From IMG/VR virus record IMGVR_UViG_2541047596_000003: DNA of 64,000 nt. One strand, written 5' to 3'. This DNA comes from a virus (Duplodnaviria; Heunggongvirae; Uroviricota; Caudoviricetes). Positions within the stretch are counted from its first letter, which is position 1; each line of letters opens with the position of its first letter. The notes under the pieces are model-generated. The model did not search any database. It was not told the origin of the DNA and saw nothing but the letters and a program-made list of their open reading frames with translations. Shown here piece by piece: positions 1,678-56,919 of the stretch. The position numbers and the translations under genes are program-made.

Positions 1678-1679
1678 CG

Positions 1680-5157: not shown

Positions 5158-5257
5158 AGCCTCACCTCCGCACGGAACGGATGGCATAGTTATTATGTGT
5201 AGGCTTTCAGACACATCAATCAGAGCCTTAATTGATATATATGCTGGAGACGATGCA

Positions 5258-5283
5258 ATATAAAAAGCTCGCCGTAGCGAGCT
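5258..5283 (-). terminator. rho-independent terminator after the lipoprotein pair
   Basis: Hairpin AGCTCGC-CGTA-GCGAGCT (5266-5283); minus-strand RNA follows it with a U-run (A-run 5262-5266 on +). Confidence 0.5.
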
Positions 5284-5408
5284 AATAAAATGTATTTCTC
5301 TGATATTATGTTTATTTGTATTAGCTCAGACTTGACATCACAGGTTTCGTATATAGAACATCATCAAATCTGTCAGTTTGCTATGAATGAGATATAGTAA
5401 TTGAAGAG

Positions 5409-5804: not shown

Positions 5805-5954
5805 TTCTTGCTCCTCAATCCATTAAAATCTCAGCAATAGTAGTTGTTACGTCCGCCACTGGCTCAGAGCTGACTATCCGCTAAATTTAGCTCAGTGCCG
5901 TAGCTGTGTCAGAACAAACCTAAGCCGAAACCGTTTATTACAAAACAATAAATA

Positions 5955-6383
5955 TCAGGGTTTAAAATCCAGCACCCCATTTTGAAATACTTTATATACT
6001 TCCGGCGAAGGGGGGGCAGGTATATCAGCATTCTTTATCGCATTCATCGCTTCACGACATAAATCGAGGTCTCCACTTTCTCTTTTAACCTCCAGTAGAA
6101 GGCCATTCGGGGCCATATGCATTCTCAGTGTACACTCTTTTCCTGAATACTTACTCGCATCCCCGAACTGTTTTTCGATGGCGCTCTTGATTTGATGGGC
6201 ATACAGACGGATATCCTCACTAACATCAGAAGTACGTTCAGATGAACTCACATACTGTGTCTCTATTGCTTTATCGGAGTAATATGATGTACGGTCATGA
6301 TAATTTGTCGATACAGCATCAGTGCACCCGATAATAATCCCACTAATAATCAACGTAAGAATTGATGCGCTACGAAAACCCAT
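5955..6383 (-). CDS. lipoprotein with TolA domain III-like C-terminus
   Basis: Signal peptide with lipobox IIGC; C-terminal ~90 aa YAHQIKSAIEKQFGDASKYSGKECTLRMHMAPNGLLLEV...CREAMNAIKNADIPAPPSPEVYKVFQNGVLDFKP closely parallels recalled E. coli TolA C-terminus ending ...VYEVFKNAPLDFKP. Confidence 0.65.
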   Translation of the reverse strand: MGFRSASILTLIISGIIIGCTDAVSTNYHDRTSYYSDKAIETQYVSSSERTSDVSEDIRLYAHQIKSAIEKQFGDASKYSGKECTLRMHMAPNGLLLEVKRESGDLDLCREAMNAIKNADIPAPPSPEVYKVFQNGVLDFKP

Positions 6384-6413
6384 TTTTCCTCACATATGTC
6401 ATATAGTAAAGGA

Positions 6414-6442
6414 TTATATATACCGTTGTTTTGGACGCTCAA
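6414..6442 (-). promoter_or_regulatory. candidate sigma70 promoter of the lipoprotein cassette
   Basis: On the minus strand TTGAGC-17 bp-ATATAA(T), about 30 nt upstream of the lipoprotein ATG at 6383. Confidence 0.35.
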
Positions 6443-7319
6443 ACAGCGAATCAGATCAAATAAAACGCACATTTGTTAACATTTACACAAAGTCTGCGTG
6501 GGATATTCTGAAAGAATATCCATAATGTGGAGAGAATCTATTGAAGTGCATGGTGCCGGGTGCCTCCCGGTGAACAAAATGTTCGTGATACCTGTCGGCG
6601 ACAGAAAAGGTTAATGGTATCACCCCACCGCACAGGGGGATTCACCATGCAGGAGTTTTCTTAGCAAACTCACTGCGCGCCCGGCAACTCCCAACCACAT
6701 AAAATGCGGAGTTTGTGGTATTTATGCATATAACTCGCAGGAATTATCTTAAAAAACTGATGTCGATCCGGATTAAAAAGAAGCAGGTCATCATCAGATG
6801 ACTGGAAAAAAGGAAAACAAAAAATACTCATCATACAGTTTTGATTGCAGGGATGAGCCTGCTATGCACAATATGCAGAATATAAGCAAGATAAAAATAT
6901 GCAGGCATATTATTTCGGATTTTGTTATTAACACAACCTTTTTAATAATCATTTGGCATACAATAAACCAGCCCAAAAAGAACCGCCTAAACAGGCGGTT
7001 GGTCAATACAAAGGATGCTTCGTCTTTATTATAGTAATCTGAGGCGTCGGGTGTCTTGTATCAGACAACATATTGTCCCGCTAAACAGCGAATTACAAAC
7101 CACCCTGCAATGATCTCTCATCTCATTTTATATGAGTTGACGACATCAGGATAACGCATCATCAGCCCCTGCCAAGAAATATCAAAACTCCCGCCAGCAA
7201 TGTGTTATCACAATATTGTAAAAAAAACACAGCACCGAAACTATAACTGGTCTCTGTTATAATTTGGAGCAGAAAGACCAGTTGCCCAACTAGCAGCATT
7301 CTCCCCTGCTTTCCTGACG

Positions 7320-7348
7320 TAAAAAAACCGCATTAAGCGGTTTTTTTA
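7320..7348 (-). terminator. tR'-like rho-independent terminator downstream of the Q-like gene
   Basis: AAAAAAACCGC-ATTAA-GCGGTTTTTTT, a symmetric hairpin with U-runs on both strands, ~80 nt after the Q-like stop. Confidence 0.5.
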
Positions 7349-7427
7349 CGATGTCCATGTCTGCAATCCGCCTCGCGATACAGCTTTGCGAAGCATAGCA
7401 AAATTGAAGCAGTTTATACGTAAGAAA

Positions 7428-7970
7428 TCAAGCCATTTTCTCAGCAAATGATTCACGCATGGGAATATATAGGGCATACTCAGCAACAGCTAACCAATTA
7501 GCAATCCGTTTTTCGCATGTGCTAAAACACCACTCTGGGTGTGCATCATTTAGCAATTCAGCCATTTTGCGCTTAGTCATCCCCCGCCCTTCATAGCGTT
7601 GCCGGAGAATGCAAATCAATCCTGGATGCTCTGCCAGCACCTCACTTATGACTCGATCAATACATAACGCCTCTGCATCAGTACAATGCGCCAGCCAGCT
7701 CTTTTGCTTGCCGTTGATCATCTCTCGCAAAAACGCTTCCAGCTCAGCTTTCTCTATTCCCGCTTTTTTCATTCTGCGCAGGGCTTCATTAATGGCTGTT
7801 TTCGTCAGTTTTTTGGATGCCAACAACTGATTGAACATATTCCCTGACCTGCCACCGCCAATATACGACCAGCGCCCCCACATACGTAGTTTTCCCTGAA
7901 TCCAGACACTTTCCAGCGTGGTGAGGCGAAGGTGTTCTCCGCTTTTTCCTGTATTCGTTGGGTAAATCAT
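7428..7970 (-). CDS. putative late-gene antiterminator (Q-like)
   Basis: 180 aa ORF at the Q position, between ybcO-like and the terminator/lysis region; assignment positional. Confidence 0.45.
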   Translation of the reverse strand: MIYPTNTGKSGEHLRLTTLESVWIQGKLRMWGRWSYIGGGRSGNMFNQLLASKKLTKTAINEALRRMKKAGIEKAELEAFLREMINGKQKSWLAHCTDAEALCIDRVISEVLAEHPGLICILRQRYEGRGMTKRKMAELLNDAHPEWCFSTCEKRIANWLAVAEYALYIPMRESFAEKMA

Positions 7971-8257
7971 AAATGACCTTTCTTTCTCCAGATTTCTTGT
8001 GTGCGAAAAACCCCTTCAGCATGCATCAGGCGCAATTCTTCTTTGGTGTAATCGCTGGTTTTTACCCGCCCGTCGATTAGATCGTGGCATGAGCTACAGG
8101 CTATCGCCGCCTGCATATCGTGTGGTTTTGTCGCTGTTCCGCACGTCCCCGCCAGCCTGTAATGCGCCAGCACAGAGGTTTCGGGATTGTGATTGCAGTA
8201 GCCAGGGATTCTGATCTGGCACATCTGGCCTTTAGCCGCTTTACGTAAATTCACCAT
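7967..8257 (-). CDS. YbcO-like putative nuclease (DUF1364)
   Basis: 96 aa, Cys/His-rich (CSSCHDLIDGR); resembles DLP12 YbcO; ATGA overlap with the Q-like start. Confidence 0.55.
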   Translation of the reverse strand: MVNLRKAAKGQMCQIRIPGYCNHNPETSVLAHYRLAGTCGTATKPHDMQAAIACSSCHDLIDGRVKTSDYTKEELRLMHAEGVFRTQEIWRKKGHL

Positions 8258-8856
8258 TACGCAAACTCCAGTAGTTGTGCGGCCACATTTTCAACTTCCT
8301 CCTGAGAGGAGAATTTACGAAACAGAATCCAGTTCCACAGCACATTCAGTACAGATTTATAAACCTGCTGAAACTCGACTTCGTCCATATTCGCAAAAGC
8401 GATGGATTTTGCCCGACGCCCACGGCTACCGTCCGGATAAATATGCTCGGTGTAAAATCCGGCCTGAATGGTTACCCACTCGCGGAAAGCCTCAAACGAC
8501 TTTAGCAACGCCGTATCCCGGGTTCTACGAGTCGCAACGGTGTTAAGGTATTGCTCTGCGGCATCACTCAGGGCTGGCGTGTGTTCCCGACCAACTGATT
8601 CGCACAGGTAATCAACGAAACCAGACAGCAGTTCTCGTTCGCGAGGCGTGATCGCCCCACCGACCGGAGTCCAGTAATCGAATCCCAGTTGCAGGAGTTT
8701 GAAAAAACGCTTGTGGAATGCGTAGTTACGCACACGCTTAAAGTCTGCGTGTATCCACTCACCTATTTTGATTTGATGCAGAAAATCGCAACTCTCCGGC
8801 GTCGCCGGGAGAAGTAAACCAGAAGAAGTTTGTTTGACCAGTTGTATATGCGCCAT
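8257..8856 (-). CDS. YdfU-like DUF1367 phage protein
   Basis: 199 aa ORF coupled to ybcO-like; similarity to Qin YdfU recalled, not computed. Confidence 0.45.
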   Translation of the reverse strand: MAHIQLVKQTSSGLLLPATPESCDFLHQIKIGEWIHADFKRVRNYAFHKRFFKLLQLGFDYWTPVGGAITPRERELLSGFVDYLCESVGREHTPALSDAAEQYLNTVATRRTRDTALLKSFEAFREWVTIQAGFYTEHIYPDGSRGRRAKSIAFANMDEVEFQQVYKSVLNVLWNWILFRKFSSQEEVENVAAQLLEFA

Positions 8857-9136
8857 TTCTCAATCTCTCGATGGCGCAGCGCAGCAGATGCCAGTTGTTC
8901 AGGCTGACGAATAAAGTATAAATAAACTGGCTATGGTGTAAAGCCCCACATAGCATGAACAAACACTACATATCAAATAGCTGGTACAAGGATAGAAATA
9001 CGACATTTATTATTAAAAACGATTAGATAAATTACATTTTAATGTTATGCAAAAGTTCTTTTTTATCATAACATTTCAATAAAAGCATTACAGATGCAAT
9101 CATCCCGTCATCATCAATTATTTAAGGTGGTTAAAC

Positions 9137-9223
9137 ATGGAAAATAACAAGTTCGCACATCTCGCTCCTTTTTTATCCGTAATCCTTTTCGCTTGTTGTT
9201 TTATATGGGCATTATTTTTATAA
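9137..9223 (+). CDS. 28-codon hydrophobic peptide ORF (MENNKFAHLAPFLSVILFACCFIWALFL)
   Basis: ATG 9137 preceded by SD AAGGTGG; single predicted TM; lies in an AT-rich stretch with no ORF of 60 aa or more. Confidence 0.3.
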   Translation: MENNKFAHLAPFLSVILFACCFIWALFL

Positions 9224-9627
9224 AGTAGCCACATGATAAGTTGCTGGAATCATATTTCCCACTCAAGTCATTAACATTTGATAAGATATATCTAAAAGGA
9301 CGCCTTTACATTATTTATGTGTATATAATTTATTTATATACACAGTAAAGGTATCCTGGGAAAATATTTATCGTTAAAAAATACATCATAAATAATTAAG
9401 CTGAAATTTCAGAACACAACTAATACACACAATAAGGTTCAGTAACAATAATCTATGTGGACTACATCGAGATTTTTTGATTAAACTTTAATAACTTATT
9501 CCTAACACACAGAATGCATAAACTAAAAGTAAAACAAATAGTTATACGAAAAACAACCATATTTATTATATCTTCTCCTCTAATCAACATATCAATTATG
9601 TGTTTCATAACAGCTTGACATAACCCT

Positions 9628-9658
9628 CAAAAACACGCATTTATAATGCATGTTTTTG
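9628..9658. promoter_or_regulatory. operator-like palindrome over a TATAAT box upstream of the yeaR-like gene
   Basis: CAAAAACACGCAT-TTATAA-TGCATGTTTTTG (13-bp arms, one mismatch); TTGACA at 9615-9620; resembles NsrR-type sites as I recall them. Confidence 0.35.
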
Positions 9659-9669
9659 AGGAGGTGGTT

Positions 9670-10008
9670 ATGACACACAAGAGAATTCCTAAAGATTGGG
9701 TAATCAAACGCTCAACTCCGTTCTTCACAAAAGAGAACGTACCTTCAGCGTTATTAACACATCATAATACAGCAGCAGGTGTTTTTGGGCAGTTGTGCGT
9801 AATGGAAGGCACTGTAACATATTATGGTTTTACTGATGAGAATGCTACTGAACCGGAGATAAAAGTAGTCATTAATGCTGGCGCTTTTGCAACAAGCCCA
9901 CCACAATACTGGCACCGTGTTGAACTAAGCGATGATGCTCAGTTTAATATTAACTTTTGGGTCGCTCCAGACTTCTCGGGCGAAAAAGTCTATAGCACCA
10001 AAAAATAG
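9670..10008 (+). CDS. YeaR-like DUF1971 protein (TehB N-domain-like)
   Basis: 112 aa from ATG 9670 with SD GAGGAGGTGG; motifs STPFF, HHNTAAGV, MEGTVTYYGF, FNINFWVAP resemble chromosomal YeaR; ORF track start 9646. Confidence 0.6.
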   Translation: MTHKRIPKDWVIKRSTPFFTKENVPSALLTHHNTAAGVFGQLCVMEGTVTYYGFTDENATEPEIKVVINAGAFATSPPQYWHRVELSDDAQFNINFWVAPDFSGEKVYSTKK

Positions 10009-10037
10009 ATGATCATATTAAAAATGCTTTAACAGTC

Positions 10038-10075
10038 AGACCCGGCAGGGCTATCCCCGACGGGTCTCATTTTTG
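10038..10075 (+). terminator. rho-independent terminator after the yeaR-like gene
   Basis: Stem AGACCCG / CGGGTCT with a 16-nt loop, then TTTT at 10071-10074. Confidence 0.45.
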
Positions 10076-10459
10076 TAAATATATTGGTTCTACATTGACA
10101 GGAGACTTCAACCATAAGAAGTAATCTGAATACTTGAGCAATAAATTTACTTAAGATTAATGAGCGCACCTTGCCGGACAAAGATAAACCAAGGTAACAC
10201 CTTTTTTCTAGCCAGTATGTAATCAATCAGAAAGCCGCTCCATAAGAACAACAGCAAGACAATAAATTGCCATTACAGCCGCAATAGCCAGCGCACATTT
10301 GAGAACCAGCACGACACCCCCCTGTATTAGACGCACACCAGTCCTGATAAATATAAGGCTGTCTCGTCAGTGATTCAATACAACTATTGGGTATAGTTTC
10401 TGTGATTTTATTCTGTAGAAATGGAACACAACAACCAGTCACCACCAGCACTTCTTTAA

Positions 10460-10471
10460 ATACGCCAAGTC
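10460..10471. repeat. 12-bp direct repeat AATACGCCAAGT, left copy
   Basis: Perfect copy of the 12-mer also at 12239-12250; the two bracket the low-GC HEPN-like gene. Confidence 0.5.
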
Positions 10472-10484
10472 CGACGCAAGCTAA

Positions 10485-10550
10485 CCTTCTAGTCCGCTTT
10501 GAGCGAGAAGCGGAAGTCTCGGTCTTATTATGTTCTGAGACTAGAAGGTA
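10485..10550. repeat. nested inverted-repeat element
   Basis: Outer 11-bp arms ACCTTCTAGTC / GACTAGAAGGT 44 bp apart, enclosing TCCGCTT/AAGCGGA and AGTCTC/GAGACT stems. Confidence 0.4.
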
Positions 10551-10678
10551 TTTCTTAAGGATGATTATTCGTTACGCCTACATATAATAGAAACAGAAAT
10601 TTAAAGTTTAAATCTAGGTATCTGGCTAATGATACCTAGATTGAATTTGAATCATATTTTGTTAGTTAACTTTAACTA

Positions 10679-12046
10679 TTATCTTTCTCCAACATCCTCT
10701 TCTAAAACATGATCTATCTTATCTACAGGAAGATTATCATACTTAGAAAAATCAAAACCATCGGGAAGTTTATTTTTTGCTGCTTTTAATATTCTTATTG
10801 AATCGTTACCGTTTCTAGAGCGATTTCGCCAATAACATTGATTGTTTTTGTTTGCTCCTTCAAGCAGGGTTAACATTTGCTCGCTTGAGTAATTAGCCAA
10901 GTCTTTGTCAATAAATCTATCAAAATATATATCGGCTCGTTCGAAATCAGCACTATTTATAAAACAAGCAATTCCAAAATCGCGATACTCTGATTCCAAA
11001 CCTAATTCGCTGCAAACATTTTTAAAAATTGCCAAATGTTGCTGGTTGAGAAAATTCCCATTATCCCCGTATTTTTTGTAATATTTTTCAGATATTCTTT
11101 TTGTTACGCGATTAATGTGTTCCTCCGGCGATTCAGATATAAAAAAGGCTATTCCAAAATAAGATATGTTATCTTTTATAATAGGCTTTATGAGTTCTTT
11201 TACTGAATCATCCAAGGCGTTATATATTTCTTTCTCCATGGAAATGAACTCAATTAGTGCCTTAATTGCATCATGGTTATTGGAAATATTGGAGTAATAA
11301 GCAGTTTCTGCTTTAACCGAGTCCACCATGGCTTGCCTGTCTTTTTCAAATATCAGTTTCATAGCTCTGATATTTATCTCTCTATTTTCTAATGGCTTAG
11401 CTTCTTCAGATCTAAACGAAAACTTCCACAACCCCTTGAATATCTTAACTAATACTTCCTTGTTTAAAGATTTGAAATATTTAACATCTAAGTATTTTTT
11501 TAGCGCGTTATCGGAAGGGAATAGGTCCTTTACCTTTTCTAGATCTGCAACAAATGTGGAAAGTATTTTTTGAGACATAAATGGCGGCTTGCTTAATATT
11601 ACTTCTATACTATTCCTAATGTCACTTCTAATCATTTCCTGTGTTGGCTCGAATAACGTATCTTCGTCACTTATTACGGGATGGGCAGATAAATGCCTGT
11701 GTTTTTGAATAAGTAAAACTTTATGGTTTGAAGCAGTGTCTAATAATTGAGTTCTTTCAAAAACTCTTTTAATAAGCTCTTTTTCCCATTTAGGAGAGTA
11801 AGGATCATCGTTTTGTAGTGCTTCAATTTCTAATAATATCTTTTCCGCAACAGCATCGTTATGAACATCTCGCAGTTCTTGGAGCTTAAAAATAATATCA
11901 CATACAACTACTGACCATAGCATCACGGTAGCAGAACGGTAACAACCATTAGCATAGCTCTTATAAACCTCTTCAAAATATTTTCTAGTTCTTCTATCAT
12001 AAATTTTACTCTTCTGAGATTCTAATGAGAATATTCTAACGTCCAT
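10679..12046 (-). CDS. HEPN-like protein, candidate abortive-infection/defence effector (function unproven)
   Basis: 455 aa from ATG 12046 with SD GGAGA; markedly AT-rich versus neighbours; KHRHLSAHP contains an R-x4-H motif after a predicted helical N-terminal region; ORF track start 12094. Confidence 0.6.
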
Positions 12047-12238
12047 AATTTCTCCATGAAAAATATTTAACTCAAATAATTGAATATGAATCATGTAGTC
12101 ATAAATACTTCAAAATTATATTTTTAGCCCACTTAATTCATACAAAACTTCTTTAATAAACTGATTCAGGCCTCATGCATTATGCTTTTAACAAACTATC
12201 CTAACCTTCATAGTGTAAATCTTGATGTTCAATTTTAC

Positions 12239-12250
12239 AATACGCCAAGT
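12239..12250. repeat. 12-bp direct repeat AATACGCCAAGT, right copy
   Basis: Second perfect copy, 1779 bp from the first. Confidence 0.5.
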
Positions 12251-12434
12251 TTCCGTAAATCAATGAATGCGTCGGATTTTACAATAATTTAAAAGAGATG
12301 TTGAATAGTATCCATGAAGTGTAAGGTTAATATACCCAAAACGTCCGCCTCTGGCACAAAGCGGACAACCACGCTAGCTCTACCCTGTGCCACAAAATGT
12401 CAATTTGCATCTGAACTAATGCACTTTAATCTCG

Positions 12435-12857
12435 TCACTTCAATAAATACCGAACATCACCCTGATAAAACGACAATATGCGCTGCATAACTTCACTCTT
12501 CCGGCACTCGCGACAGATTATGTTCTGACGCCTGTCGTAGCGACGTATTTCTCCGTCAGGTAATGACCAGATAAGGTCCGGATCAACCGCAGATGGTTTC
12601 TTCAGCTTTGCCCTTGAGAGCTTTTTACGGGCATTTTGCCAGTCCTTACGCGCCTGTTCAGACGGGAATAACCCGTAACCAGAGTTGTATACATCGCCGC
12701 TGGCAACCAGCTCTCTTGCGAGAACGCTCATCAGATATCTTGTCGCATCTGTCTTGACTTCCAGTTGCCGTAACGTCTCGCGTCCACTCCGGCGTACTAG
12801 CTCAACAACCTGCCCTTTAATTTTTTCCCGCTCTTCCTGTGTAAAAACTTTTGCCAT
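12435..12857 (-). CDS. hypothetical phage protein
   Basis: 140 aa from ATG 12857 (MAKVFTQEER) with SD GGAGG; contains a CRECRK motif; ORF track start 12872 is TTG. Confidence 0.45.
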   Translation of the reverse strand: MAKVFTQEEREKIKGQVVELVRRSGRETLRQLEVKTDATRYLMSVLARELVASGDVYNSGYGLFPSEQARKDWQNARKKLSRAKLKKPSAVDPDLIWSLPDGEIRRYDRRQNIICRECRKSEVMQRILSFYQGDVRYLLK

Positions 12858-12872
12858 AAGCGCCTCCGGCAA

Positions 12873-13634
12873 TCACTTTTCCGACACAATACGACTGGAG
12901 GAATCGACAATCTGTCGGACAATATCCCGGTGCTTGTTCAGCTCCCGCAGCGCGGCGCAGACTCGCTCCCACTTCTGGACATGATTTTTCGCCCGACGCA
13001 GTTCGCGGTTTGCCATATGCAGCGATGGTAAAACCAGGTCATCCGCTTGCGTTTCAGTAAACGATGGCAGCGACTGCACAATGTCCGCCACAGTTTCTGT
13101 TTTAATATCTTCCTGTGTTGCCGCTTCCTGTACTGGTAACGCAACACCGGCTGGCTGAGGAAAGGCTTTACCATCAGTTTCCGCTACCGATGCAGCTTTC
13201 GGCTCTGCTGGTAAATTATCGCCCGGCATGCAGTAACGAAATTTACCGTTCTGATTAACGCGAATCAGACGACCTTTATTGATTGCCATTGCCAGCGTTG
13301 AAGCCACTTTGCGTGATGTGATGCCGAAAAACGTAGCCAGTTCATCCGCCGTTTGTGGGCCACGTTGTTCAATCGTCGCAGTTAAATCGCACTCCGAAAT
13401 TTTTGCGACTGTTGCCGTGGTGGTTTCTTCCGGCAGTTCTGCCTGCTCTGGCTGTTCCTGCTGAACGTTGTTATCAGCCACGCGCCAGGTGTATACGCTT
13501 TTATCAACGAAGCCAGCCTTTTTCAGTTCCCACAGCTCGTTCAGCACTTCTTCACGACTGATATCAAGTCGCGCAGCCAGTTCTACCGACGTAGCTTTCC
13601 CCATTGCTTTCAGTGCGTCAAAAACAGTCTCCAT
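12873..13634 (-). CDS. winged-helix DNA-binding phage protein
   Basis: ATG 13634 ([43 protein letters not shown]) with SD GGGAGAA; ORF track start 13685. Confidence 0.5.
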
Positions 13635-13656
13635 TAAATTTTTCTCCCGGTAAAAA

Positions 13657-14403
13657 TTACTTCGCAATTCCTGGCTGGACGACATTCGGACGCCAGCTCT
13701 CCCAGTTAAAATTCACCCATCGCCCGCCGTTCATGGTCATGCGATCCATAATCCGCTCGCCGAGCAATGTTTTCATGGCCTCATAGTTCAGGTTTGTCAG
13801 CATTCCCACGCTACGCATCGACGCTGTCCGTCGATCAATAATCTGGTGCAGTACCACCTGCTCGTTTTTCGTCTCGCGCTGAATGCCAATTTCATCAAGA
13901 ACCAGCAGATCCACTTCGCACAGTTCCCGCAAAAATTTTTCGCCTGACTGCCCGTCGTCATAGCTGGCGTGGAGGGCACTCATAACATCAGCCACGGTAA
14001 CCACAATCACTGTCTGACCGTCTTTCAGCAGGCGATTCCCGATAGCTGCCGCTAAGTGATTCTTCCCGGTACCAGGTTTTCCGCTGAACGCAAAATTTGT
14101 ACACCCGGTCATCAGTTCATCAGCGATGGATTTCGCCTGACTCAACGCGTATCGCTGCCCTTCGTTCTGCACCTGGTAATTCGAAAACGAGCATTTGCGG
14201 TGCAATGGCTGGATGCCAGAGCGATTCAGAATTTTTTCCACCCGCAACTGACGATTCTGACGGTTGATCTCCTCACAACGTTTCTGGCCTTCGGAAAGTT
14301 GCCACTCGCGCCACTCCGCTACCGTCTTGAATGGCGCGGTTACATGTGACGGGGCCAGTCTGCGGATACGTTCAAGAACGTCGCCTGTCGCAATATTTTT
14401 CAT
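13657..14403 (-). CDS. ydaV: DnaC-like replication protein (helicase loader)
   Basis: 248 aa with Walker [16 protein letters not shown] and Walker [10 protein letters not shown]; same length as Rac YdaV. Confidence 0.85.
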
Positions 14404-14511
14404 GGTCAGTTACCCCCTGAAGCCTGGCGGGATCGCACTATCCGGTAACGAGACGGTGTTAACCTGTCGGAGTAACGTCTCAGGTCGAACACCTTTCGGC
14501 GCGAACAAGCC

Positions 14512-15198
14512 CTAGTATTCGTTGGCGATGCTGTGTCGAATCACCTGCTCAGGTGAAAAACCCTGCTGGCGGAATTTTTCCAGCTCCCGTATCGCCCCGT
14601 TAGCGCCCTGCTCCGTTCGAATCGGTTTTCGCAATGCCTGCCTGAACTGAACCCACTCATGCCAGAGTGTTTCCGGCAACCAGTCAGGCAGCTCGATAGC
14701 CTCCGGTTCGAATTTTTTAGACGCTCGTTTTTGGCGAGGGGGATTTAGGGGGAGATAAGTATTTATATCTTCCTCTTTCTCTTCCTCTGGTAACGCTTTT
14801 TGATCCGTTTTTGTAACGCTGGCAGCGTTACCTTTTCGTTTCAGTTCTCGTATTTTTGTTACTCTCTCGTTTGTAACCGCCCGTTTTTTAGAGCTTTTCC
14901 CGTTATGGCGCTCAAAGTTAGGAAGCGACAACACACCATTAGTTTCGACCAGCCATCCAACCTGAATTAACGCATCAGCAAAACCAGCCATAAAAGTGAT
15001 GCGATCTATTGCACTTTTTGTAACGCCGCGAGCGTTACACTCTGCGTTACCGTCTATCATTTGTTGATCCGCCCATGCCCAGAAGCGAATGACTTTCCCT
15101 AATGCGGCATCTGGATCAATATTCAGAATCTCAGCAAGCCTGAATATTTCCGGCTTATCCGGCGTAATAACTTCGAGCTTTATCCAGTTTGAAGCCAT
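14512..15198 (-). CDS. replication initiation/organiser protein (YdaU-like)
   Basis: 228 aa upstream of the DnaC-like gene, basic C-terminal half; positional call. Confidence 0.55.
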   Translation of the reverse strand: MASNWIKLEVITPDKPEIFRLAEILNIDPDAALGKVIRFWAWADQQMIDGNAECNARGVTKSAIDRITFMAGFADALIQVGWLVETNGVLSLPNFERHNGKSSKKRAVTNERVTKIRELKRKGNAASVTKTDQKALPEEEKEEDINTYLPLNPPRQKRASKKFEPEAIELPDWLPETLWHEWVQFRQALRKPIRTEQGANGAIRELEKFRQQGFSPEQVIRHSIANEY

Positions 15199-15275
15199 TT
15201 GTTTTCACCTTGTAACGCTCGCAGCGTTACATTTAACTGATACCGAACAAAACAGTTCGGTACGATTAATTTCAA

Positions 15276-15698
15276 TCAATGCACTACGACAGAATCGCTA
15301 GGAGAACCGCCGCCGCTGAAATGTGCTTTACGGTAAACGGCCTGGACTGCATCATCATGCGCATCAATTGCCGTACTCAGTGCATCCTGTGCCGCCAGTA
15401 ATGCACGGCGTTCCAGGGTATCGAAGATGCAGAGTCGGTGACGCAGCTCGCGAGGAAGAATTGCCAGAACCGCAGGGATCAGTTTCTGAATTTTTTCCCT
15501 TTGCGCATTCGTTTCACCTTTCAACCAACGATGATAGATATTCTGCTGATTGTTCCAGTCCTTGCCTGGTACCAGGGGCAATTCGCCGCCCCCCTGGCGC
15601 AGATATTCTTCAGTAATTGCGTTAGCGACCCACGCCTGCCCTTTTTCGGCTGCCAGGGCTAACAACACTGATTCGATGTGCTCATGCTTGATTTTCAT
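15276..15698 (-). CDS. ydaT: YdaT-like prophage protein
   Basis: 140 aa (MKIKHEHIESVLLALAAEKGQ...), same length and position as Rac YdaT, co-oriented with the Cro-like gene. Confidence 0.65.
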   Translation of the reverse strand: MKIKHEHIESVLLALAAEKGQAWVANAITEEYLRQGGGELPLVPGKDWNNQQNIYHRWLKGETNAQREKIQKLIPAVLAILPRELRHRLCIFDTLERRALLAAQDALSTAIDAHDDAVQAVYRKAHFSGGGSPSDSVVVH

Positions 15699-15949
15699 GA
15701 ATCAACTCCCATCAGCTTTTTCGTAGTAGTTTTATTTCTGCCAATAGTTAAAATTGCATCGGCAGAAAATAATCCGTTTGATGCATGAGCGATTTTTTCA
15801 GCGTAATTTGTTTCGCCGGTATATTCTGTGCGAGGCAATTTTCCGTTATCCATCCATTTGTAGATTGCTCTTTGGCTGACACCACAAACGTCGGCCACAA
15901 CAGAAACGCGAACAGTTTTGATTACATCTTCAAGTGTTTTCTGGTTCAT
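15695..15949 (-). CDS. Cro/YdaS-like HTH regulator
   Basis: ATG 15949 (MNQKTLEDVIKTVRVSVVADVCGVSQRAIYKWMDNGKLP); ORF track start 16021 would leave no room for divergent promoters. Confidence 0.6.
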   Translation of the reverse strand: MNQKTLEDVIKTVRVSVVADVCGVSQRAIYKWMDNGKLPRTEYTGETNYAEKIAHASNGLFSADAILTIGRNKTTTKKLMGVDS

Positions 15950-16028
15950 ATCACCCTCACAATGTGAACTTTGAGTACATGCTATAACAGAACTGACAGT
16001 ACATTCAAGAGCGAATATCATTGAACTT
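15950..16028. promoter_or_regulatory. immunity-region divergent promoter/operator segment
   Basis: 79-bp gap between divergent HTH genes; contains direct repeats AGTACAT 26 bp apart. Confidence 0.4.
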
Positions 16029-16448
16029 ATGGTTCATGAAGATAAAGCGCGTAAAGAGTTCGCCAGTAGGCTTGCGCTAGCCTGTGAAAACGCTGGTTAT
16101 GAACAACATGGAAGGCAGGCAGAAATTGCCCGTCGAATGAAATTAACACCAAAAGCGGTTAGCAAATGGTTTAATGGTGAAACAATTCCTCGCCGAGAGA
16201 AATTAAGGGAATTAGCAACACTCATTGGAACAACACCAACCTATCTTTTGGGAGAGGATACAGAAGAAAGTGGACAGATACGTTTCTATCAGGAGTTAAA
16301 TCCAAGACAAAAAATCATCATTGACCTTCTGGACGAGCTCCCTGACAGTGAGACAGATGAACTTTTAAAAACTCTTGAGGAGAAAAAACAGAAGTACAAT
16401 GCAATTTACGAAGAGTTAGCACGAAAGAAAAAACAAAAAGCCTCTTAA
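16029..16448 (+). CDS. XRE-family prophage repressor (RacR-like)
   Basis: 139 aa with HTH ...KLTPKAVSKWFNGETIPRREKLRELATLIGTTPTYLLGE; divergent from the Cro-like gene. Confidence 0.65.
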   Translation: MVHEDKARKEFASRLALACENAGYEQHGRQAEIARRMKLTPKAVSKWFNGETIPRREKLRELATLIGTTPTYLLGEDTEESGQIRFYQELNPRQKIIIDLLDELPDSETDELLKTLEEKKQKYNAIYEELARKKKQKAS

Positions 16449-16735
16449 ACCAGCATAAATCCGGTAGCGTCCCCCTCCGGGTTTGTGCTTCACTTTATCC
16501 CGTCTCATTTTTTTATACATAAAATGTACTTAAAGTACTTTACAATGATGAACACAAAGTACATTATATACCTACCAACCCACCCCGCCCCACAGAACGC
16601 CGGGCAATACTTCGAGTTACCAGGCAGTGGTCAGGGGTTAAGTAGCCAGCCCGAGGCGTATGAACATGACGGCGGGATTCAAATTTTGCAGTGCAGCAGT
16701 TAGTTCCGCCACCCGGCGTTAAGGGGATAGATAAG

Positions 16736-16870
16736 ATGGTGCATTACGAAGTAGTTCAGTATTTGATGGATTGTTGCGGTATCACTTACAACCAGGCTGT
16801 GCAGGCTTTACGCAGCAACGACTGGGATCTCTGGCAGGCAGAAGTCGCTATACGTAGCAACAAGATGTGA
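16736..16870 (+). CDS. ydaG: small Rac protein YdaG-like (44 aa)
   Basis: Hand translation MVHYEVVQYLMDCCGITYNQAVQALRSNDWDLWQAEVAIRSNKM; below the ORF-track size cutoff. Confidence 0.55.
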   Translation: MVHYEVVQYLMDCCGITYNQAVQALRSNDWDLWQAEVAIRSNKM

Positions 16871-16880
16871 GATTCGCAAA

Positions 16881-17036
16881 ATGCAAAAAATCGACCTCGG
16901 CAACAACGAATCCCTGGTGTGCGGCGTGTTCCCCAACCAGGATGGAACGTTCACTGCCATGACGTATACCAAAAGCAAAACATTTAAAACCGAAACTGGT
17001 GCGCGCCGATGGTTGGAGAAGCACACAGTAAGCTAA
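16881..17036 (+). CDS. ydaF: small Rac protein YdaF-like (51 aa)
   Basis: Hand translation MQKIDLGNNESLVCGVFPNQDGTFTAMTYTKSKTFKTETGARRWLEKHTVS. Confidence 0.55.
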   Translation: MQKIDLGNNESLVCGVFPNQDGTFTAMTYTKSKTFKTETGARRWLEKHTVS

Positions 17037-52082: not shown

Positions 52083-53597
52083 TTAAAATCCGCGCAGGCG
52101 TTTAGGTAACATAAGACCCATCGCCTGTGGTTGGCTTAATTCAGTGATCCCCCATACCATCGCATCCATACGGTCAGGGGATTTTTTAGCGGTAGCTGGC
52201 ACATATTCCATCATTTGATTTTCCAGCGTGTACAGGCTGCCAGTGTGGGCTACCCTACCCTGTGCATACAATGCAGATATTGGTTCGGCGCGGGCAAATT
52301 TACCCTTGCTTGCGTGCACCTTAACAATGCGGCCCTTAAATCCTGCATTGCGTAGTGTGGCCTCTGCCATATCACCACCCTGGTTGGTTTCGATAACCAT
52401 CGCGTCAGCTTCATGGATGTTGTAGGCGTTCATTGCTGCTTGCGCCCAGTCATTAGGTGACATGCGGCCTGAGTAGTCACCGTCTACTGAATACTGAGCA
52501 TTCTTGCCACCACCATAAGCGGAACAGGCTACAATCCCTGTTTCGTCTGACTCATCAGATGATGTTGTCGCCGGGTCGATGGCTATCACCGTGCGAATTT
52601 TCTCCTGCGTTATCTGCATCCTGTGCGCGGCGGTTATCATCGCTTCAGTCCACAATGCGCCCTCTTGATCGAACTTGCGCGGACACTGCATATATTGAGC
52701 TTCGAATGTTCGGCGATGTGATTTAAGAGTTGATTCATCTTTATCACTATGCTTATGCAACCATAGCCAGCCATCCGGCAGGTTGTGAGGAACAGGAATA
52801 GCGAATTTGTTTTCCGGGTACAGATCCCAATAGTCAAGACTGTTGTCGATCTTCACTGGCAGGCAAAGGTGATGCCATTTCTCACCACTACCGCCACGTA
52901 ACAGGTAGCCGGATAAATCATCGTAGTGGATACGCTGCATGATGACGATCACTGGCGTTGTTTGCACAGCCAGGCGCGAAGAAAGCGTGTCGTTGTAATT
53001 GGTATTAACCTGCTTTCGCACCACATCAGAATAAGCGTCAGCTGGTTTCAGGGGATCATCAATAATCATTGCGCCGTTAAACCCAGGTTCCATGTACCCG
53101 GCGCGGAACCCTGTCACCTGTCCAAGCGATGACGTCGCATACACGCCGCCACCCTGAGTGGTCCACCACAGGTTTTTCGCGTTCGAATCGTTGCGCATTT
53201 GCATAGGCCACAATTCCTGATATTGCGGCATCGTGATTATGTTTCTTGTCTCTGAGGAATTAAGCAAGGCGAGTCCGTGTGAATACGATACATGCAGGAA
53301 TCTGGTGCGGGGTTCTATTGCGAGGCAGCGGGCCATCATGTGAATTGTGGCAATCATTGTTTTGCCATAGCCCGGTGGGATGTTGATTATCAACCTGGTG
53401 ATTTCACCATTAATAACTCGTTGTAGCGTATCGGCAATTATTCTGTGATGACGCCCAACCAAAAAGTCCTTGCCAACCTGTTGCTTATAAAAGTAGGAAC
53501 TAAAAAACAAAGGTGCTGATATGTCTTTGGGAGCACAACCTTTAACACACAACCCCCTTAGAACCTCTCTGTCAATCTTTGTCGTCGCAGTCTCCAT
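52083..53597 (-). CDS. terminase large subunit
   Basis: 504 aa; ATPase motifs PPGYGKT and MIIDDPLKP; C-terminal nuclease-like region; overlaps the small subunit end. Confidence 0.85.
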   Translation of the reverse strand: METATTKIDREVLRGLCVKGCAPKDISAPLFFSSYFYKQQVGKDFLVGRHHRIIADTLQRVINGEITRLIINIPPGYGKTMIATIHMMARCLAIEPRTRFLHVSYSHGLALLNSSETRNIITMPQYQELWPMQMRNDSNAKNLWWTTQGGGVYATSSLGQVTGFRAGYMEPGFNGAMIIDDPLKPADAYSDVVRKQVNTNYNDTLSSRLAVQTTPVIVIMQRIHYDDLSGYLLRGGSGEKWHHLCLPVKIDNSLDYWDLYPENKFAIPVPHNLPDGWLWLHKHSDKDESTLKSHRRTFEAQYMQCPRKFDQEGALWTEAMITAAHRMQITQEKIRTVIAIDPATTSSDESDETGIVACSAYGGGKNAQYSVDGDYSGRMSPNDWAQAAMNAYNIHEADAMVIETNQGGDMAEATLRNAGFKGRIVKVHASKGKFARAEPISALYAQGRVAHTGSLYTLENQMMEYVPATAKKSPDRMDAMVWGITELSQPQAMGLMLPKRLRGF

Positions 53598-54087
53598 GAG
53601 TATTGTACTCCTTATTCAGGTTATCGATTATCTCAAGGACAGTAGTCTGATTTACTTCTACCTGGACGGGTGCTTCTTCCTTGTTACCGACGATCTCCTG
53701 TGTGACGCGTTCGCCGTATTTGCGCGGCTGGAGTTTTGCCAGTAGCCACTTGCGTGTCTCAATCATCAGTTGATGGCGGCGCAATTGGTCCTTATCTGCG
53801 TTCTCTGCGGCATCAGCCAGATCGATGATTTCATCAGCCAACACCTCGAAGCCGATCTCCTTCGCGCGTACATACATGTCCGAAAATTCAGGCACATCAC
53901 GAAACCATTTCAGGATTGTTGAACGGGTAGGCATACCAGGCATTTTTGATATTTTGTTAATACTCTGACCGTCCGCTACCAGTTCGCAGATCTCTAACGC
54001 TTTCTCTTCGGTATAACCATGCGGACGGCCCACCTTTTTAGCGGCTGGCTTTTTGTCGTCAGCTTTTGCATTTTTAGTGCGGGCCAT
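53572..54087 (-). CDS. terminase small subunit
   Basis: 171 aa with N-terminal HTH-like region, immediately upstream of the large subunit. Confidence 0.65.
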   Translation of the reverse strand: MARTKNAKADDKKPAAKKVGRPHGYTEEKALEICELVADGQSINKISKMPGMPTRSTILKWFRDVPEFSDMYVRAKEIGFEVLADEIIDLADAAENADKDQLRRHQLMIETRKWLLAKLQPRKYGERVTQEIVGNKEEAPVQVEVNQTTVLEIIDNLNKEYNTHGDCDDKD

Positions 54088-54252
54088 AATTCACCTCTCA
54101 ATATTTATTGATGATATATACGCAAGCAACAAAACTTGCACAGTATGTTAATACTTCCAACCAATCGAATAGCTCCTTCATTGTTTGCCCTTTATGTGAA
54201 GAAAACGATAACGACTAATAACGTGCATATAGCCATGATTAAGAAATCGCCG

Positions 54253-54327
54253 TCAGACATTAATAATAAGCCCCACAATAACAACCGCAGCGATACATAC
54301 GAATAATACGGCTTCGATAGCTTCCAT
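54253..54327 (-). CDS. micro-ORF 7, 24-aa hydrophobic peptide MEAIEAVLFVCIAAVVIVGLIINV
   Basis: ATG 54327, SD AGGTGA, TGA at 54253-54255; single predicted TM. Confidence 0.3.
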   Translation of the reverse strand: MEAIEAVLFVCIAAVVIVGLIINV

Positions 54328-54335
54328 ATATTCAC

Positions 54336-54404
54336 CTATTGAGTCAGCGCGGTCATGGTAAGAACAATCGCAACGATCAGGAAAAAGAAATCAAGCCATT
54401 TCAT
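54336..54404 (-). CDS. micro-ORF 6, 22-aa hydrophobic peptide MKWLDFFFLIVAIVLTMTALTQ
   Basis: ATG 54404 overlaps the upstream stop as ATGA. Confidence 0.3.
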   Translation of the reverse strand: MKWLDFFFLIVAIVLTMTALTQ

Positions 54405-54481
54405 TTTTTAAACTCCCGATAAACATCTACGGCAATGACTACAACTACAGCCACCAGCAATAGCATTTCGTATGCGTTCAT
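54401..54481 (-). CDS. micro-ORF 5, 26-aa hydrophobic peptide MNAYEMLLLVAVVVVIAVDVYREFKK
   Basis: ATG 54481 with SD GAAGGT. Confidence 0.3.
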   Translation of the reverse strand: MNAYEMLLLVAVVVVIAVDVYREFKK

Positions 54482-54492
54482 TGTGGATACCT

Positions 54493-54567
54493 TCAGCTTT
54501 CAATGAATATCATGATCGCCAGCCATACAGCGACGCAGGCAGAAAGGATAATTAGCGGGTCAATCAT
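54493..54567 (-). CDS. micro-ORF 4, 24-aa hydrophobic peptide MIDPLIILSACVAVWLAIMIFIES
   Basis: ATG 54567 with SD GGGGTGA. Confidence 0.3.
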   Translation of the reverse strand: MIDPLIILSACVAVWLAIMIFIES

Positions 54568-54572
54568 ATTTT

Positions 54573-54683
54573 TCACCCCACCAAATACTTGATATATACG
54601 TTTATCAGCGCAACTATAATAGAACCAGCAAGAAACACAGAAACGCCGATTAATCCGGCAATGATGTAAGCGTCCATAATCAT
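54573..54683 (-). CDS. micro-ORF 3, 36-aa hydrophobic peptide MIMDAYIIAGLIGVSVFLAGSIIVALINVYIKYLVG
   Basis: ATG 54683 with SD GGAAG; shares MDAY(I/L) start with micro-ORF 2; translation checked codon by codon. Confidence 0.35.
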   Translation of the reverse strand: MIMDAYIIAGLIGVSVFLAGSIIVALINVYIKYLVG

Positions 54684-54745
54684 TACTTCCACAACAAAAA
54701 CAATATTACAGCCGCCGCCATTCCGATAAATAAATAAGCGTCCAT
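54683..54745 (-). CDS. micro-ORF 2, 20-aa hydrophobic peptide MDAYLFIGMAAAVILFLLWK
   Basis: ATG 54745; stop overlaps the next start. Confidence 0.3.
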   Translation of the reverse strand: MDAYLFIGMAAAVILFLLWK

Positions 54746-54747
54746 AA

Positions 54748-54837
54748 TCAGTCTCGCATAGACATAACTACCAGAAACAGGCAAAGGATGAATCCAGCCG
54801 CCATCCCGCCGACGAAAGTTAGTATTGACGCAATCAT
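54748..54837 (-). CDS. micro-ORF 1, 29-aa hydrophobic peptide MIASILTFVGGMAAGFILCLFLVVMSMRD
   Basis: ATG 54837 with SD GAGG, 5 nt after the HExxH gene stop; translation checked codon by codon. Confidence 0.35.
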   Translation of the reverse strand: MIASILTFVGGMAAGFILCLFLVVMSMRD

Positions 54838-54839
54838 AA

Positions 54840-55382
54840 TCAGCCTCGTTTAAAACTCATAACACGCGGTACAAGCGCTTCTTTTGCTTTCGGCTTACGT
54901 TTACCTTTCTTCGCTGGCTTTTCTTCTTCCTTCGGCTGTTCTGCCTGTTCCAGCGCCTGATCGACGACTTCTGCCGCCTGCATTGCTGCAACCTGTGCTT
55001 CGTTTGATTCTGCTAGGATAGGGAAAAACGCATCGAAGATACGGCCTACCATGTAAGCGTAAGTCTCATTCGCCGGATGGGTAGGATCCGTGGTAGCCAC
55101 GACGCCTACATCACTTAAAACGTGGAATGTAGTGTGGGCGCATTCATGGACCAGCGTTCCCAACTCATTGTTGAATACTGCGATCACGTAGAAGTTACCA
55201 CCATTCTCGCCAGTGCAAGTAAGCGTTAATCCTCCAGCCAACTCGAAATCAGGTTCAATCGGAATTCCTGCCTTTTCGCAAAATTCATAGAACATCTCGC
55301 GGGTCGGGCAAAAGAAAACGGTTGTATGCTCAAAGAGTGGGATCTTAAATTGAGGCAATTTAATGCCTTTAGCCTTAGCCAT
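54840..55382 (-). CDS. HExxH-motif protein, putative zinc metallopeptidase
   Basis: 180 aa with SD AGGAGA; LVHECAHTTFH motif; Lys-rich C-terminal tail. Confidence 0.5.
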   Translation of the reverse strand: MAKAKGIKLPQFKIPLFEHTTVFFCPTREMFYEFCEKAGIPIEPDFELAGGLTLTCTGENGGNFYVIAVFNNELGTLVHECAHTTFHVLSDVGVVATTDPTHPANETYAYMVGRIFDAFFPILAESNEAQVAAMQAAEVVDQALEQAEQPKEEEKPAKKGKRKPKAKEALVPRVMSFKRG

Positions 55383-55661
55383 CAGAATAATCTCCTATTC
55401 TGAAAAATATAACCCCCGCAAAACTCGACACCGCAGGGAGTGAAAACAGTTATAAAACACTGAAAACGGCGCTTCATCAGTACCGTTTCCAGAATTTTAT
55501 AAAATTGGTGAATGGCGCTTTCTTCTACCCAGGTAGCGCCTGACCTGTTAATGGGACTGTTGATCCGGTATTACGTGTTTTTGACTATTCCGCCGTCGCT
55601 CGCGGGAAGGATTGGCCCGGTTATGGCTGGCTGACAGAAACGGCGACACGTCCACGCGCTG

Positions 55662-56150
55662 CTATTCTTTGCGTAAACACTGAGTTTTGATGTAGTCCTG
55701 TAGGCCAGTGATCTGTGCGTCTTTCTCTTTTAGTTGTTCTCTGAGGGATAGATAAGATTGTCTAGCAGTGGCATCAAGCTCGCAGGTGGCTCCATCAATG
55801 CGGCTGGCGGTCGCGGCGGGGTCGGACACTCGCACGGGTATTGCGTTGACGCGCAACCGGATAGTACCGTTATCAATGCCAGTGCGCAGATCGGCAATGT
55901 CAGATCTGATAGCTTTAATCTCATCGTGATACCTCTTATCAAGTTTTGACAGTTCGGCGTTTCGCTCCTTCATCTGCTGAATAGTGTTACTTGCCGTTTT
56001 CAGTGCGCCTTTCGTTACCGTGACTTCTTCCTGTAACCTTGCCGCCTCACCCTGGTAATAACATGTTACGGCGGTCAGTCCGGCAATAATGCAAACAACA
56101 GCGGCGAAAATTAACGCCTTCACCTTGTCCACGTTTCCCCCCATTCGCAA
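55662..56150 (-). CDS. Rz-like i-spanin
   Basis: 162 aa, N-terminal TM plus coiled coil, contains embedded lipoprotein ORF. Confidence 0.75.
55730..55924 (-). CDS. Rz1-like o-spanin lipoprotein (embedded)
   Basis: ATG 55924; [24 protein letters not shown] lipobox then proline-rich body; ORF track start 55942. Confidence 0.6.
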   Translation of the reverse strand: MRLKLSDLTLPICALALITVLSGCASTQYPCECPTPPRPPAALMEPPASLMPLLDNLIYPSENN

Positions 56151-56611
56151 ACGGCATATTCAACCTCGCGGCGGTTTACCAGGCCTTGCCACTTCTTACC
56201 GCCAGCGTATACCCAGCGTTTAAGCTGTGCGCACGCTTCTGATTTCTTGCCGTCATTGAGTAGTTTTAGTAAGGTTGATGTTTTGAAGTTGGTAGCGCCT
56301 ACGTTATAGGCGAATGAATAAAGTGCTGCGCGGGTAAAATCTGATATTTCGACTTTGATATATGGGTCAATCGCTTTTGCGGTCTTGTGTAGATCTTTAT
56401 TTAACAAAGCATCGCATTCTGATTGCGTGTAAGTCTTACCAAGCATGATGTCTTTTCCGACGTGTCCATAACATATCGTGTAAACACCGATGACATCTCT
56501 GTATGGCTTATACTCAACGCCTTCAAGATCTTTTATCATCACCGCCGCAATAGCGATCGCCCCACCAGCCGCCGCCGCAACAATCTTGTTTTTCAGCGAT
56601 TGGCTAATCAT
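56120..56611 (-). CDS. phage lysozyme / endolysin
   Basis: 163 aa paralogous to the Rac-type endolysin at 4445-4942. Confidence 0.85.
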
Positions 56612-56812
56612 TTACTTATTCCCCATTCGCGCGTCGTGTTCCTCTTGCGCCCGCTTGTTCTCCTGTGATTTGAAGTAATAATTAACGGCAAATGTGCCTA
56701 CGGTTGATAAGATACCAACGAAAACAGCGATGTCATTGATGGTTATCGCGCCGAAAAAAGCAGTTACGGCCCCAGTCACATACGCACACGCCTCCCGTAT
56801 TCTGTCGAACAT
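56612..56812 (-). CDS. holin
   Basis: 66 aa with two hydrophobic helices and charged C-terminus, directly upstream of the endolysin, SD GGAGG. Confidence 0.7.
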   Translation of the reverse strand: MFDRIREACAYVTGAVTAFFGAITINDIAVFVGILSTVGTFAVNYYFKSQENKRAQEEHDARMGNK

Positions 56813-56830
56813 AGATTTTCCTCCAACAAA

Positions 56831-56855
56831 GCAAAAACCCGGCGCGGGGCCGGGT
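56831..56855 (-). terminator. rho-independent terminator just upstream of the holin
   Basis: CCCGGC-GCGGG-GCCGGG followed on the minus transcript by UUUUUGCUUU. Confidence 0.5.
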
Positions 56856-56919
56856 AATTACAATTTCGCATTGTTAGGAAATATTTTAATCTGTTTGTTT
56901 GCGCTCTACAAATACGGCG

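Follow-up and report, generated by a model that had tools for sequence, protein, structure and literature searches.

Minigluzincins are soluble zincins that remain active at about 100 residues. Two of them, proabylysin and projannalysin, are minimal soluble zincins which, with PDB entry 3e11, we take to be among the closest known systems to the protein considered here, the 180 amino acid (aa) product of a gene in a 64,000-nt stretch of the virus record IMGVR_UViG_2541047596_000003 (this whole stretch is the window referred to below). The gene is a complete open reading frame (ORF) with an ATG start at positions 54840..55382 on the minus strand; it is the orthologue of mEp021 gp49, belongs to PHROG 1365, and is carried by an mEp021-like (mEpimmI) E. 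coli prophage. The mEpimmI group consists of Nus-dependent, non-lambdoid temperate siphoviruses of the human gut (PMC11893012). Among phage proteins, the virion RNA polymerase (vRNAP) of N4 contains a metallopeptidase (MPTase) domain (Iyer et al. 2017, PMC5512222), and the zincin core of phage MPTases comprises a β-sheet, a helix bearing HExxH, and a next helix that contributes a Glu (PMC5512222). Here we describe the window protein as, with high probability, a zincin-type metallohydrolase, and most probably a peptidase.

The nearest relatives of the gene are the members of PHROG 1365, whose annotated function is 'unknown'. The window protein matches phrog_1365 with an expectation value (E) of 2.4e-31, its residues 1-131 aligning with profile positions 3-124 of 127. 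Members include mEp021 gp49, phage L Orf129, ST64T gp49, epsilon34 gp70, and HkcC of P22 and HK620. The window protein shares 92-95% identity with the mEp021_49 product, a 'hypothetical protein' of 194 aa, and E. coli genome assemblies contain over 100 near-identical proteins, none of them with a name. Proteins of the Orf129 type (phage L, ST64T gp49, ST104 orf47, epsilon34 gp70, and g341c gp66) are ∼46% identical, and those of the HkcC type (P22 and HK620) are 37% identical (BLAST to P22 HkcC, E 4e-22). In P22, hkcC belongs to the 'ant moron' and has been termed 'of unknown function' (PMC2629481); it is also listed as unknown in a second publication (PMC4837284). The P22 hkcC ORF (L003 2489-2866, plus strand) is unannotated in the third-party annotation record BK000583, and it runs antisense to, and overlaps, the 5′ portion of sieA as defined by its longest frame.

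A phmmer search with residues 1-135 against 1.8 billion representative proteins returned 157 relatives, the best 150 of which are stand-alone and range from 67 to 189 aa, with most at 110-140 aa. Searching for further homologues with the family profile returned mostly close relatives again. Among sequenced phages, tblastn located homologues in 73 P22-like phage records as well as in mEp-type phages, and genome scans place the family across the Enterobacterales (Citrobacter, Kluyvera, Pantoea, Serratia, Yersinia, Xenorhabdus, Proteus, Klebsiella, and Salmonella). The phrog_1365 relatives are homologous to the window protein over the whole ∼125-aa domain, share its HExxH...E arrangement, and are encoded by late-operon genes. 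The mEp-clade proteins differ from other members in an extra 45-60-residue acidic helix with a basic tail, and in the array of micro-ORFs that follows the gene. HkcC of P22 and HK620 differs from the window protein in its location in the ant moron.

Active site and predicted fold

The initial annotation of the window had singled out this 180-aa ORF for its LVHECAHTTFH segment, its Lys-rich tail, its position between a spanin gene and a set of micro-ORFs, and its co-orientation with them; every one of these details agrees with the ORF list and the coordinates. The product contains GTLVHECAHTTFHVLSDVGV, in which the HExxH residues are H79-E80-C81-A82-H83, and it ends in the Lys-rich tail EQPKEEEKPAKKGKRKPKAKEALVPRVMSFKRG. 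An AGGAG Shine-Dalgarno (SD) sequence lies at 55392-55396, 9 nt 5′ of the ATG. The gene is under strong purifying selection: over codons 1-135, 24 distinct alleles drawn from related prophages have a median ratio of nonsynonymous to synonymous polymorphism (pN/pS) of 0.066. When the window is read in six frames, the stop-free stretches of ≥100 aa total 21,685 residues, and HExxH is found in them a single time. That single occurrence, the low pN/pS, and the invariance of the motif in 100 homologues together argue that the motif is not a chance match.

To define the catalytic residues we used an alignment of the 100 homologues (A3), which reaches down to 22% identity and has a mean column identity of 15%. 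Only four columns of this alignment are invariant: H79, E80, H83, and E106. The HExxH motif (55134..55148, minus strand) lies on helix 74-91. The fourth invariant residue, E106 (55065..55067, minus strand), is located 23 residues past H83 at the start of helix 103-134, within the sequence N-E-T-Y-A-Y (family motif N-E-[TA]-[YF]-[CA]-Y), and is the predicted third zinc ligand, of the gluzincin type. H87, which gives the window protein an apparent HExxHxxxH, is not conserved in A3. The earlier reading of HExxH as a zinc-metallopeptidase signature is thus borne out by the same four columns. A three-ligand site is predicted from the alignment and the model, and from it we infer zinc binding and peptidase activity.

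AlphaFold2, run on A3, models residues 1-135 (54978..55382, minus strand) as a catalytic-type domain with a mean predicted local distance difference test (pLDDT) score of 94.9 and a predicted template modelling (pTM) score of 0.88. The model contains strands at 11-13, 21-25, 51-57, and 63-69, and helices at 28-38, 44-48, 74-91 (the HExxH helix), and 103-134. This predicted fold has the zincin topology described for phage MPTases (PMC5512222). As in gluzincins, a conserved helical HExxH is followed by a Glu on the next helix, and a mixed β-sheet is accompanied by an N-terminal helix. The initial annotation had named a metalloprotease fold and conservation of HExxH among homologues as the points on which its protease proposal should be judged; with a zincin topology predicted and the motif invariant, that proposal stands.

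Comparison with solved structures gives a fainter signal. A Foldseek search of the model against the PDB returned nothing significant, and a search of PDB sequences with the single protein gave one chance match only (E 0.96). The A3 profile, searched against PDB sequences, returned weak matches (E 0.16-0.8) exclusively to zinc metallopeptidases and phage N4 vRNAP, which align over the strand pair and HExxH. The N4 vRNAP matches (E 0.6-0.8) fall in its MPTase region, and hhalign of the family profile against N4 vRNAP aa 2130-2448 gave a probability of 59% over 34 columns, covering two strands and HExxH. The profile reaches no ArdC chain in the PDB at E ≤ 10. One homologue carries the automatic name 'PolyVal Metallopeptidase superfamily domain' in nr.

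The window protein thus resembles the MPTases of polyvalent proteins in its core layout, in its local similarity to the N4 region, and in its carriage by phages. It is a stand-alone protein with a domain of ∼120 aa, whereas the polyvalent MPTases are domains of giant multidomain proteins; these have been proposed to process their own polypeptide, and the window protein has nothing attached for processing. PF18818 (MPTase-PolyVal) gave no match with the window protein or with the family consensus, and a listing of the 25 Pfam families hit most often by the 100 members does not contain it. With no Pfam match and no multidomain context, we did not assign this stand-alone protein to the polyvalent proteins. 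For the family as a whole, the most fitting description is an uncurated clade of minimal enzymes resembling gluzincins, with a possible distant kinship to the polyvalent-protein MPTases.

Beyond the catalytic-type domain, residues 136-180 (54843..54977, minus strand) form a C-terminal extension in which the acidic helix continues and then gives way to a disordered Lys/Arg-rich tail (pLDDT <50 for residues 149-180). The extension ends ALVPRVMSFKRG, and its last codons, AAA CGA GGC TGA, hold the GAGG SD sequence of the next ORF. Conservation of the terminal K-R-G codons may therefore reflect, in part, the overlapping ribosome-binding site. The basic tail is found in mEp-clade proteins and in P0121 and P0118, and is absent from most of the ∼120-aa family members. 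In P0113 the tail is swapped for unrelated sequence where an HNH homing-endonuclease gene has inserted directly after the gene, so the tail may be dispensable for core function. Binding of DNA or of a partner by the tail is speculation. We also considered a MinD-like amphipathic membrane anchor for the ...VPRVMSFKRG terminus and dropped it, as hydrophobic-moment values do not discriminate.

Genomic position and expression

In the window, the gene follows a lysis cassette and precedes the packaging genes, all on the minus strand. The holin (56612-56812) and endolysin (56120-56611) genes are followed by the Rz spanin gene (55662..56150), which is the upstream neighbour of the HExxH gene, is called 'Rz-like spanin' in the annotation of phage MagusPhagus, and contains the embedded Rz1 (55730-55942). 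Directly downstream of the HExxH gene are eight co-oriented micro-ORFs (54098..54837), each encoding a hydrophobic peptide with a single transmembrane segment. Next come an Sf6-type small terminase subunit (53572..54087; phrog_1482 E 5e-51, with PF20901 on orthologues) and the large terminase (52083-53597). DNA from 54000-56900 of the window is ∼90% identical to MagusPhagus, mEp010, mEp554, mEp044, mEp013, mEp021, and mEp515.

The initial annotation regarded a position after the lysis genes as unusual for such a protein. This part does not hold; post-lysis placement is the rule for the family in enterobacterial temperate phages, including phages with differing lysis cassettes and terminases. 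In ST64T and phage L, the gene lies between an Rz-like spanin gene and dec or the small terminase gene. In 80 IMG/VR loci retrieved by means of a family alignment, nearly all copies are co-oriented with their neighbours, after endolysin and Rz and before the terminase genes, and this placement holds across differing holin, endolysin, and terminase families.

For counts of position, we dereplicated the loci to 25 lineages at ∼85% identity. In about half of these, the next start codon lies -4 to +3 nt from the stop of the HExxH gene. The small terminase gene is next or next but one in at least 10 of the 25 lineages and represents at least four terminase families. The SD sequence of the downstream gene falls within the last protease codons whether that gene is a micro-ORF, a small terminase gene of one of several families, or a phrog_513 gene. 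The HExxH gene is translationally coupled to the next gene. A small phrog_571 protein of unknown function is a frequent, though not universal, neighbour. A stop-to-ATG spacing of 2-3 nt with an embedded SD sequence is seen in the window (54837-54850) and at loci L061, L062, L066, L074, L087, and L090.

In P22-like phages the family has two different late-operon sites; the second is that of P22 and HK620, the ant moron, where gene 16/sieA and mnt flank the gene. In several P22-like phages two paralogues coexist, with 38% identity to each other, and the distribution of the family among close relatives is patchy. Distant members have other surroundings. P0127 adjoins a deoxynucleoside monophosphate kinase gene. 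P0163 (L108 3729-4570) and P0165 (L109 3639-4570) each have a start that overlaps the upstream gene by 4 nt; the overlapped gene is Tad2-like (PF11195) in L108 and has no Pfam match in L109. The block around them contains two ParB_N genes and an AAA NTPase gene, plus a thioredoxin gene in L108, a composition suggestive of a cluster of accessory or counter-defence genes.

The 280-bp spacer between Rz and the HExxH ORF (55383..55661, minus strand) contains the AGGAG sequence and two terminator-like hairpins with U-runs. By folding, the hairpin at 55460-55492 (minus strand) has a free energy of -16.5 kcal/mol (z -3.9) and that at 55413-55439 (minus strand) of -11.8 kcal/mol (z -1.3); each is followed by its U-run, and the mEp021 record annotates a terminator at the place equivalent to the second. 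Rfam gave no family match in the spacer, and a promoter scan found no sigma-70-like promoter on the gene strand within it. Given the negative promoter scan, the presence of a Q-like late regulator upstream in mEp021, and the location of the terminase and head genes further downstream in the same orientation, the HExxH gene is most simply placed in a Q-antiterminated late transcript. The tandem hairpins would then lie inside this presumed transcript, implying read-through by antiterminated polymerase. Two short ORFs in the spacer, at 55382-55477 (31 aa) and 55548-55655 (35 aa) on the minus strand, overlap the terminator-like hairpins. MagusPhagus annotates two short coding sequences (31 and 35 aa) in the corresponding spacer; we saw no evidence that the 31- and 35-aa spacer ORFs are genes.

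The micro-ORF array is a feature of one clade. In the window, its eight ORFs encode 20-36 aa from ATG starts, the first ATG lying 2 nt past the stop of the HExxH ORF. Across 15 mEpimmI-type loci there are 2-10 co-oriented ORFs of 20-47 aa, each encoding approximately one transmembrane helix. Peptide cassettes (e.g. MNAYEMLLLVAVVVVIAVDVYREFKK and MKWLDFFFLIVAIVLTMTALTQ) recur in varying number and order (loci L001, L002, L007-L036), and the micro-ORFs are mostly uncalled as genes in public records. Every mEpimmI-like locus examined has the array; most other family members lack it downstream and have a small terminase, Dec, phrog_513, or phrog_571 gene directly next. P0121, which is 54% identical to the window protein and has a similar extension (an acidic helix, a Lys-rich stretch, and the ending ...YVPRIARYKRG), is followed after 3 nt by a small terminase gene, with no array.

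Several further features of the window and of related loci deserve mention. The window holds no second copy of the HExxH gene; the other 180-aa ORF (7428-7970, minus strand) is Q-like. Positions 1-17000 of the window apparently belong to a second, lambdoid-type element, and the ORF at 7428-7970 (minus strand) reads by eye as a Q-type antiterminator. HNH_3 (plus AP2-like) homing-endonuclease genes occur in close relatives (L088/L089 2739-3263 and 4563-5000; L087 2752-3273), inserted between endolysin and Rz or directly 3′ of the protease gene. One related metagenomic phage (L087) also has, from 8491 on, an intein in its MuF-like head-morphogenesis gene (PF14890 and PF04233).

Proposed role and alternatives

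On balance, we favour the view that the window protein is a late-operon accessory zincin-type metallopeptidase with a specific cytoplasmic target and a conflict-related role. The zinc ion would be coordinated by H79, H83, and E106, with E80 serving as general base. Q-antiterminated transcription late in infection would pass through the two terminator-like hairpins to reach the gene, and its translation would be coupled to that of whichever gene comes next. The enzyme, most likely dispensable to the phage, would act late in infection and cleave one specific cytoplasmic protein or a few of them. Such targets would belong to the host or to a competing element and would not be the neighbouring micro-peptides. 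The timing of expression and the nature of the substrate are what we infer here from the operon and its surroundings. A conflict role is favoured by the patchy, moron-like distribution of the family, its two insertion sites, and the co-resident paralogues, and likewise by rapid divergence outside the four catalytic residues and by the accessory neighbourhoods of distant members. Following published mass spectrometry of the mEp021 virion, gp49 does not carry the annotation 'virion structural protein', which is a weak argument against a packaged, injected enzyme.

A number of observations weigh against this proposal. Although a conflict-related role is the most likely one, it is drawn from distribution and context. 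No functional study came up in literature searches covering hkcC, Orf129, and HExxH anti-defence proteases of phages, and scans of Pfam, NCBIfam, and PADLOC with the protein and the family consensus gave nothing at threshold (the sole hits being DUF4344, E 0.14, and TIGR04267, E 0.26). Within the mEp clade, the array of micro-ORFs invariably comes after the gene, so a clade-specific link is conceivable, and the recurrent tight coupling to small terminase genes of several families could indicate a role in packaging.

The last point bears on an alternative that we regard as unlikely, though it is the first of the alternatives in plausibility: that the protein is a packaging or morphogenesis protease which acts with the terminase or head module, either clearing DNA-bound proteins or processing a head or terminase component. 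HNH proteins encoded beside the terminase genes of HK97-like phages offer an analogy. The counts of small terminase neighbours and the -4 to +3 nt spacing given above speak for such a function. So does the structural module of the prophage, in which portal, MuF-like, phrog_760, decoration, and capsid genes follow one another and no prohead protease is recognisable, and the basic tail could conceivably bind DNA or a capsid component. These points are offset by the location of the gene in P22 and HK620, by phages with two paralogues, by distant members in early or accessory regions far from the terminase, by the patchy presence of the gene among close relatives, and by the lack of a virion annotation for mEp021 gp49 after mass spectrometry. 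To our knowledge, moreover, P22 assembly needs no proteolysis. A prohead maturation protease in the strict sense was considered and rejected, as the gene lies upstream of the small terminase gene and not between portal and capsid, the predicted fold is that of a metallo-type zincin instead of a serine or ClpP-like protease, and gp49 has no virion annotation.

A more specific version of the conflict-related role is, taken by itself, doubtful. Here the family members would be stand-alone mini-zincins that are expressed late and destroy a specific component of host immunity or abortive infection, for example a sensor of terminase, portal, or capsid, and in the mEp clade the tail and the array would join as a larger late counter-defence or exclusion module. 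Such a function would explain the coupling to the first packaging gene, the coexisting paralogues, and the Tad2-like neighbours.

It is improbable that the protein is something other than a peptidase, with a metal-binding, zincin-like site that serves another hydrolytic function or a purely structural or regulatory one, or with a function as a binding or inhibitor module. Similarity to solved peptidases is weak, and a domain of ∼120 aa can accommodate a substrate cleft only with difficulty. The invariant set of four is nevertheless exactly the catalytic set of gluzincins, including a general-base Glu that would be superfluous in a structural metal site, and the activity of soluble zincins of ∼100 residues, known from the minigluzincins, shows that small size need not preclude catalysis.

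The initial annotation had also pointed to ImmA/IrrE-type and SprT-like enzymes, and a protein of known regulatory or repair type, either an ImmA/IrrE-like repressor-cleaving protease or a SprT/Spartan-like DNA-dependent protease with a DNA-binding Lys-rich tail, is in our assessment very unlikely. The window protein shares with SprT, Spartan, and Wss1 the character of a small HExxH zincin, and its basic tail recalls their DNA-binding regions; most family members, though, are without such a tail. The SprT-like model PF10263 gives sub-threshold matches in 27 of the 100 members (best E 4e-4) and no match with the window protein or the family consensus. The third ligand of SprT is a His (HELAHLLVWKH), whereas the window family has the invariant Glu, a non-conserved H87, and no zinc ribbon. 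With hhalign, the family profile scored probabilities of 4% against the single E. coli SprT sequence and 9% against a 20-sequence profile, and the active site lay outside both alignments. On these three grounds (the Pfam result, the third ligand, and the hhalign scores), we rejected a SprT-like identity. Peptidase M78 (PF06114), the ImmA/IrrE family, is absent for the window protein, for the consensus, and from the listing of the members' 25 commonest Pfam families. Compared with ImmA/IrrE and CapP, the window protein is much smaller, is placed in a late operon, and has no adjoining helix-turn-helix (HTH) repressor gene; its neighbours are Rz/Rz1 and either the micro-ORFs or the small terminase gene. 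An ImmA/IrrE identity was rejected on the lack of a profile match and on this neighbourhood. P22 hkcC does adjoin the immI (mnt/arc/ant) region, but a late-operon location would be too late for an induction switch.

Least probable of all is the functional tie to the micro-peptides raised in the initial annotation, in which the HExxH enzyme would mature, trim, or degrade the downstream micro-proteins as one functional module: every mEpimmI-like locus examined has its first micro-ORF 2 nt on with the SD sequence in the protease codons, the micro-ORFs are conserved as cassettes, and one non-mEp locus (L065) has a 56-aa transmembrane ORF directly after the gene, but the array is confined to a single clade, P0121 has the same type of tail without an array, coupling to unrelated downstream genes is equally tight, and the micro-ORFs are almost wholly transmembrane segment, each with its own start codon and neither leader nor polyprotein, so that no processing is needed.

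What remains favoured, then, is the accessory late-operon metallopeptidase, and its interest lies in annotation at the level of the family rather than in a novel type of system, the micro-peptide link being unsupported. If the prediction is true, a widespread and overlooked gene of the late operon has as its product one of the smallest known proteases of the zincin type, and a biochemical class could be given both to PHROG 1365 and to 'hypothetical proteins' that number in the hundreds among the prophages of E. coli and Salmonella. Carriers of the gene include three model phages (P22, L, and HK620) as well as the mEpimmI group, which is prevalent in the gut. Since P22 and mEp021 are amenable to genetics, a substrate, or a role in counter-defence or packaging, could then be identified quickly. 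The family is a new, uncurated member of the zincin-like metallopeptidases that was already present, unnoticed, in classic model phages.

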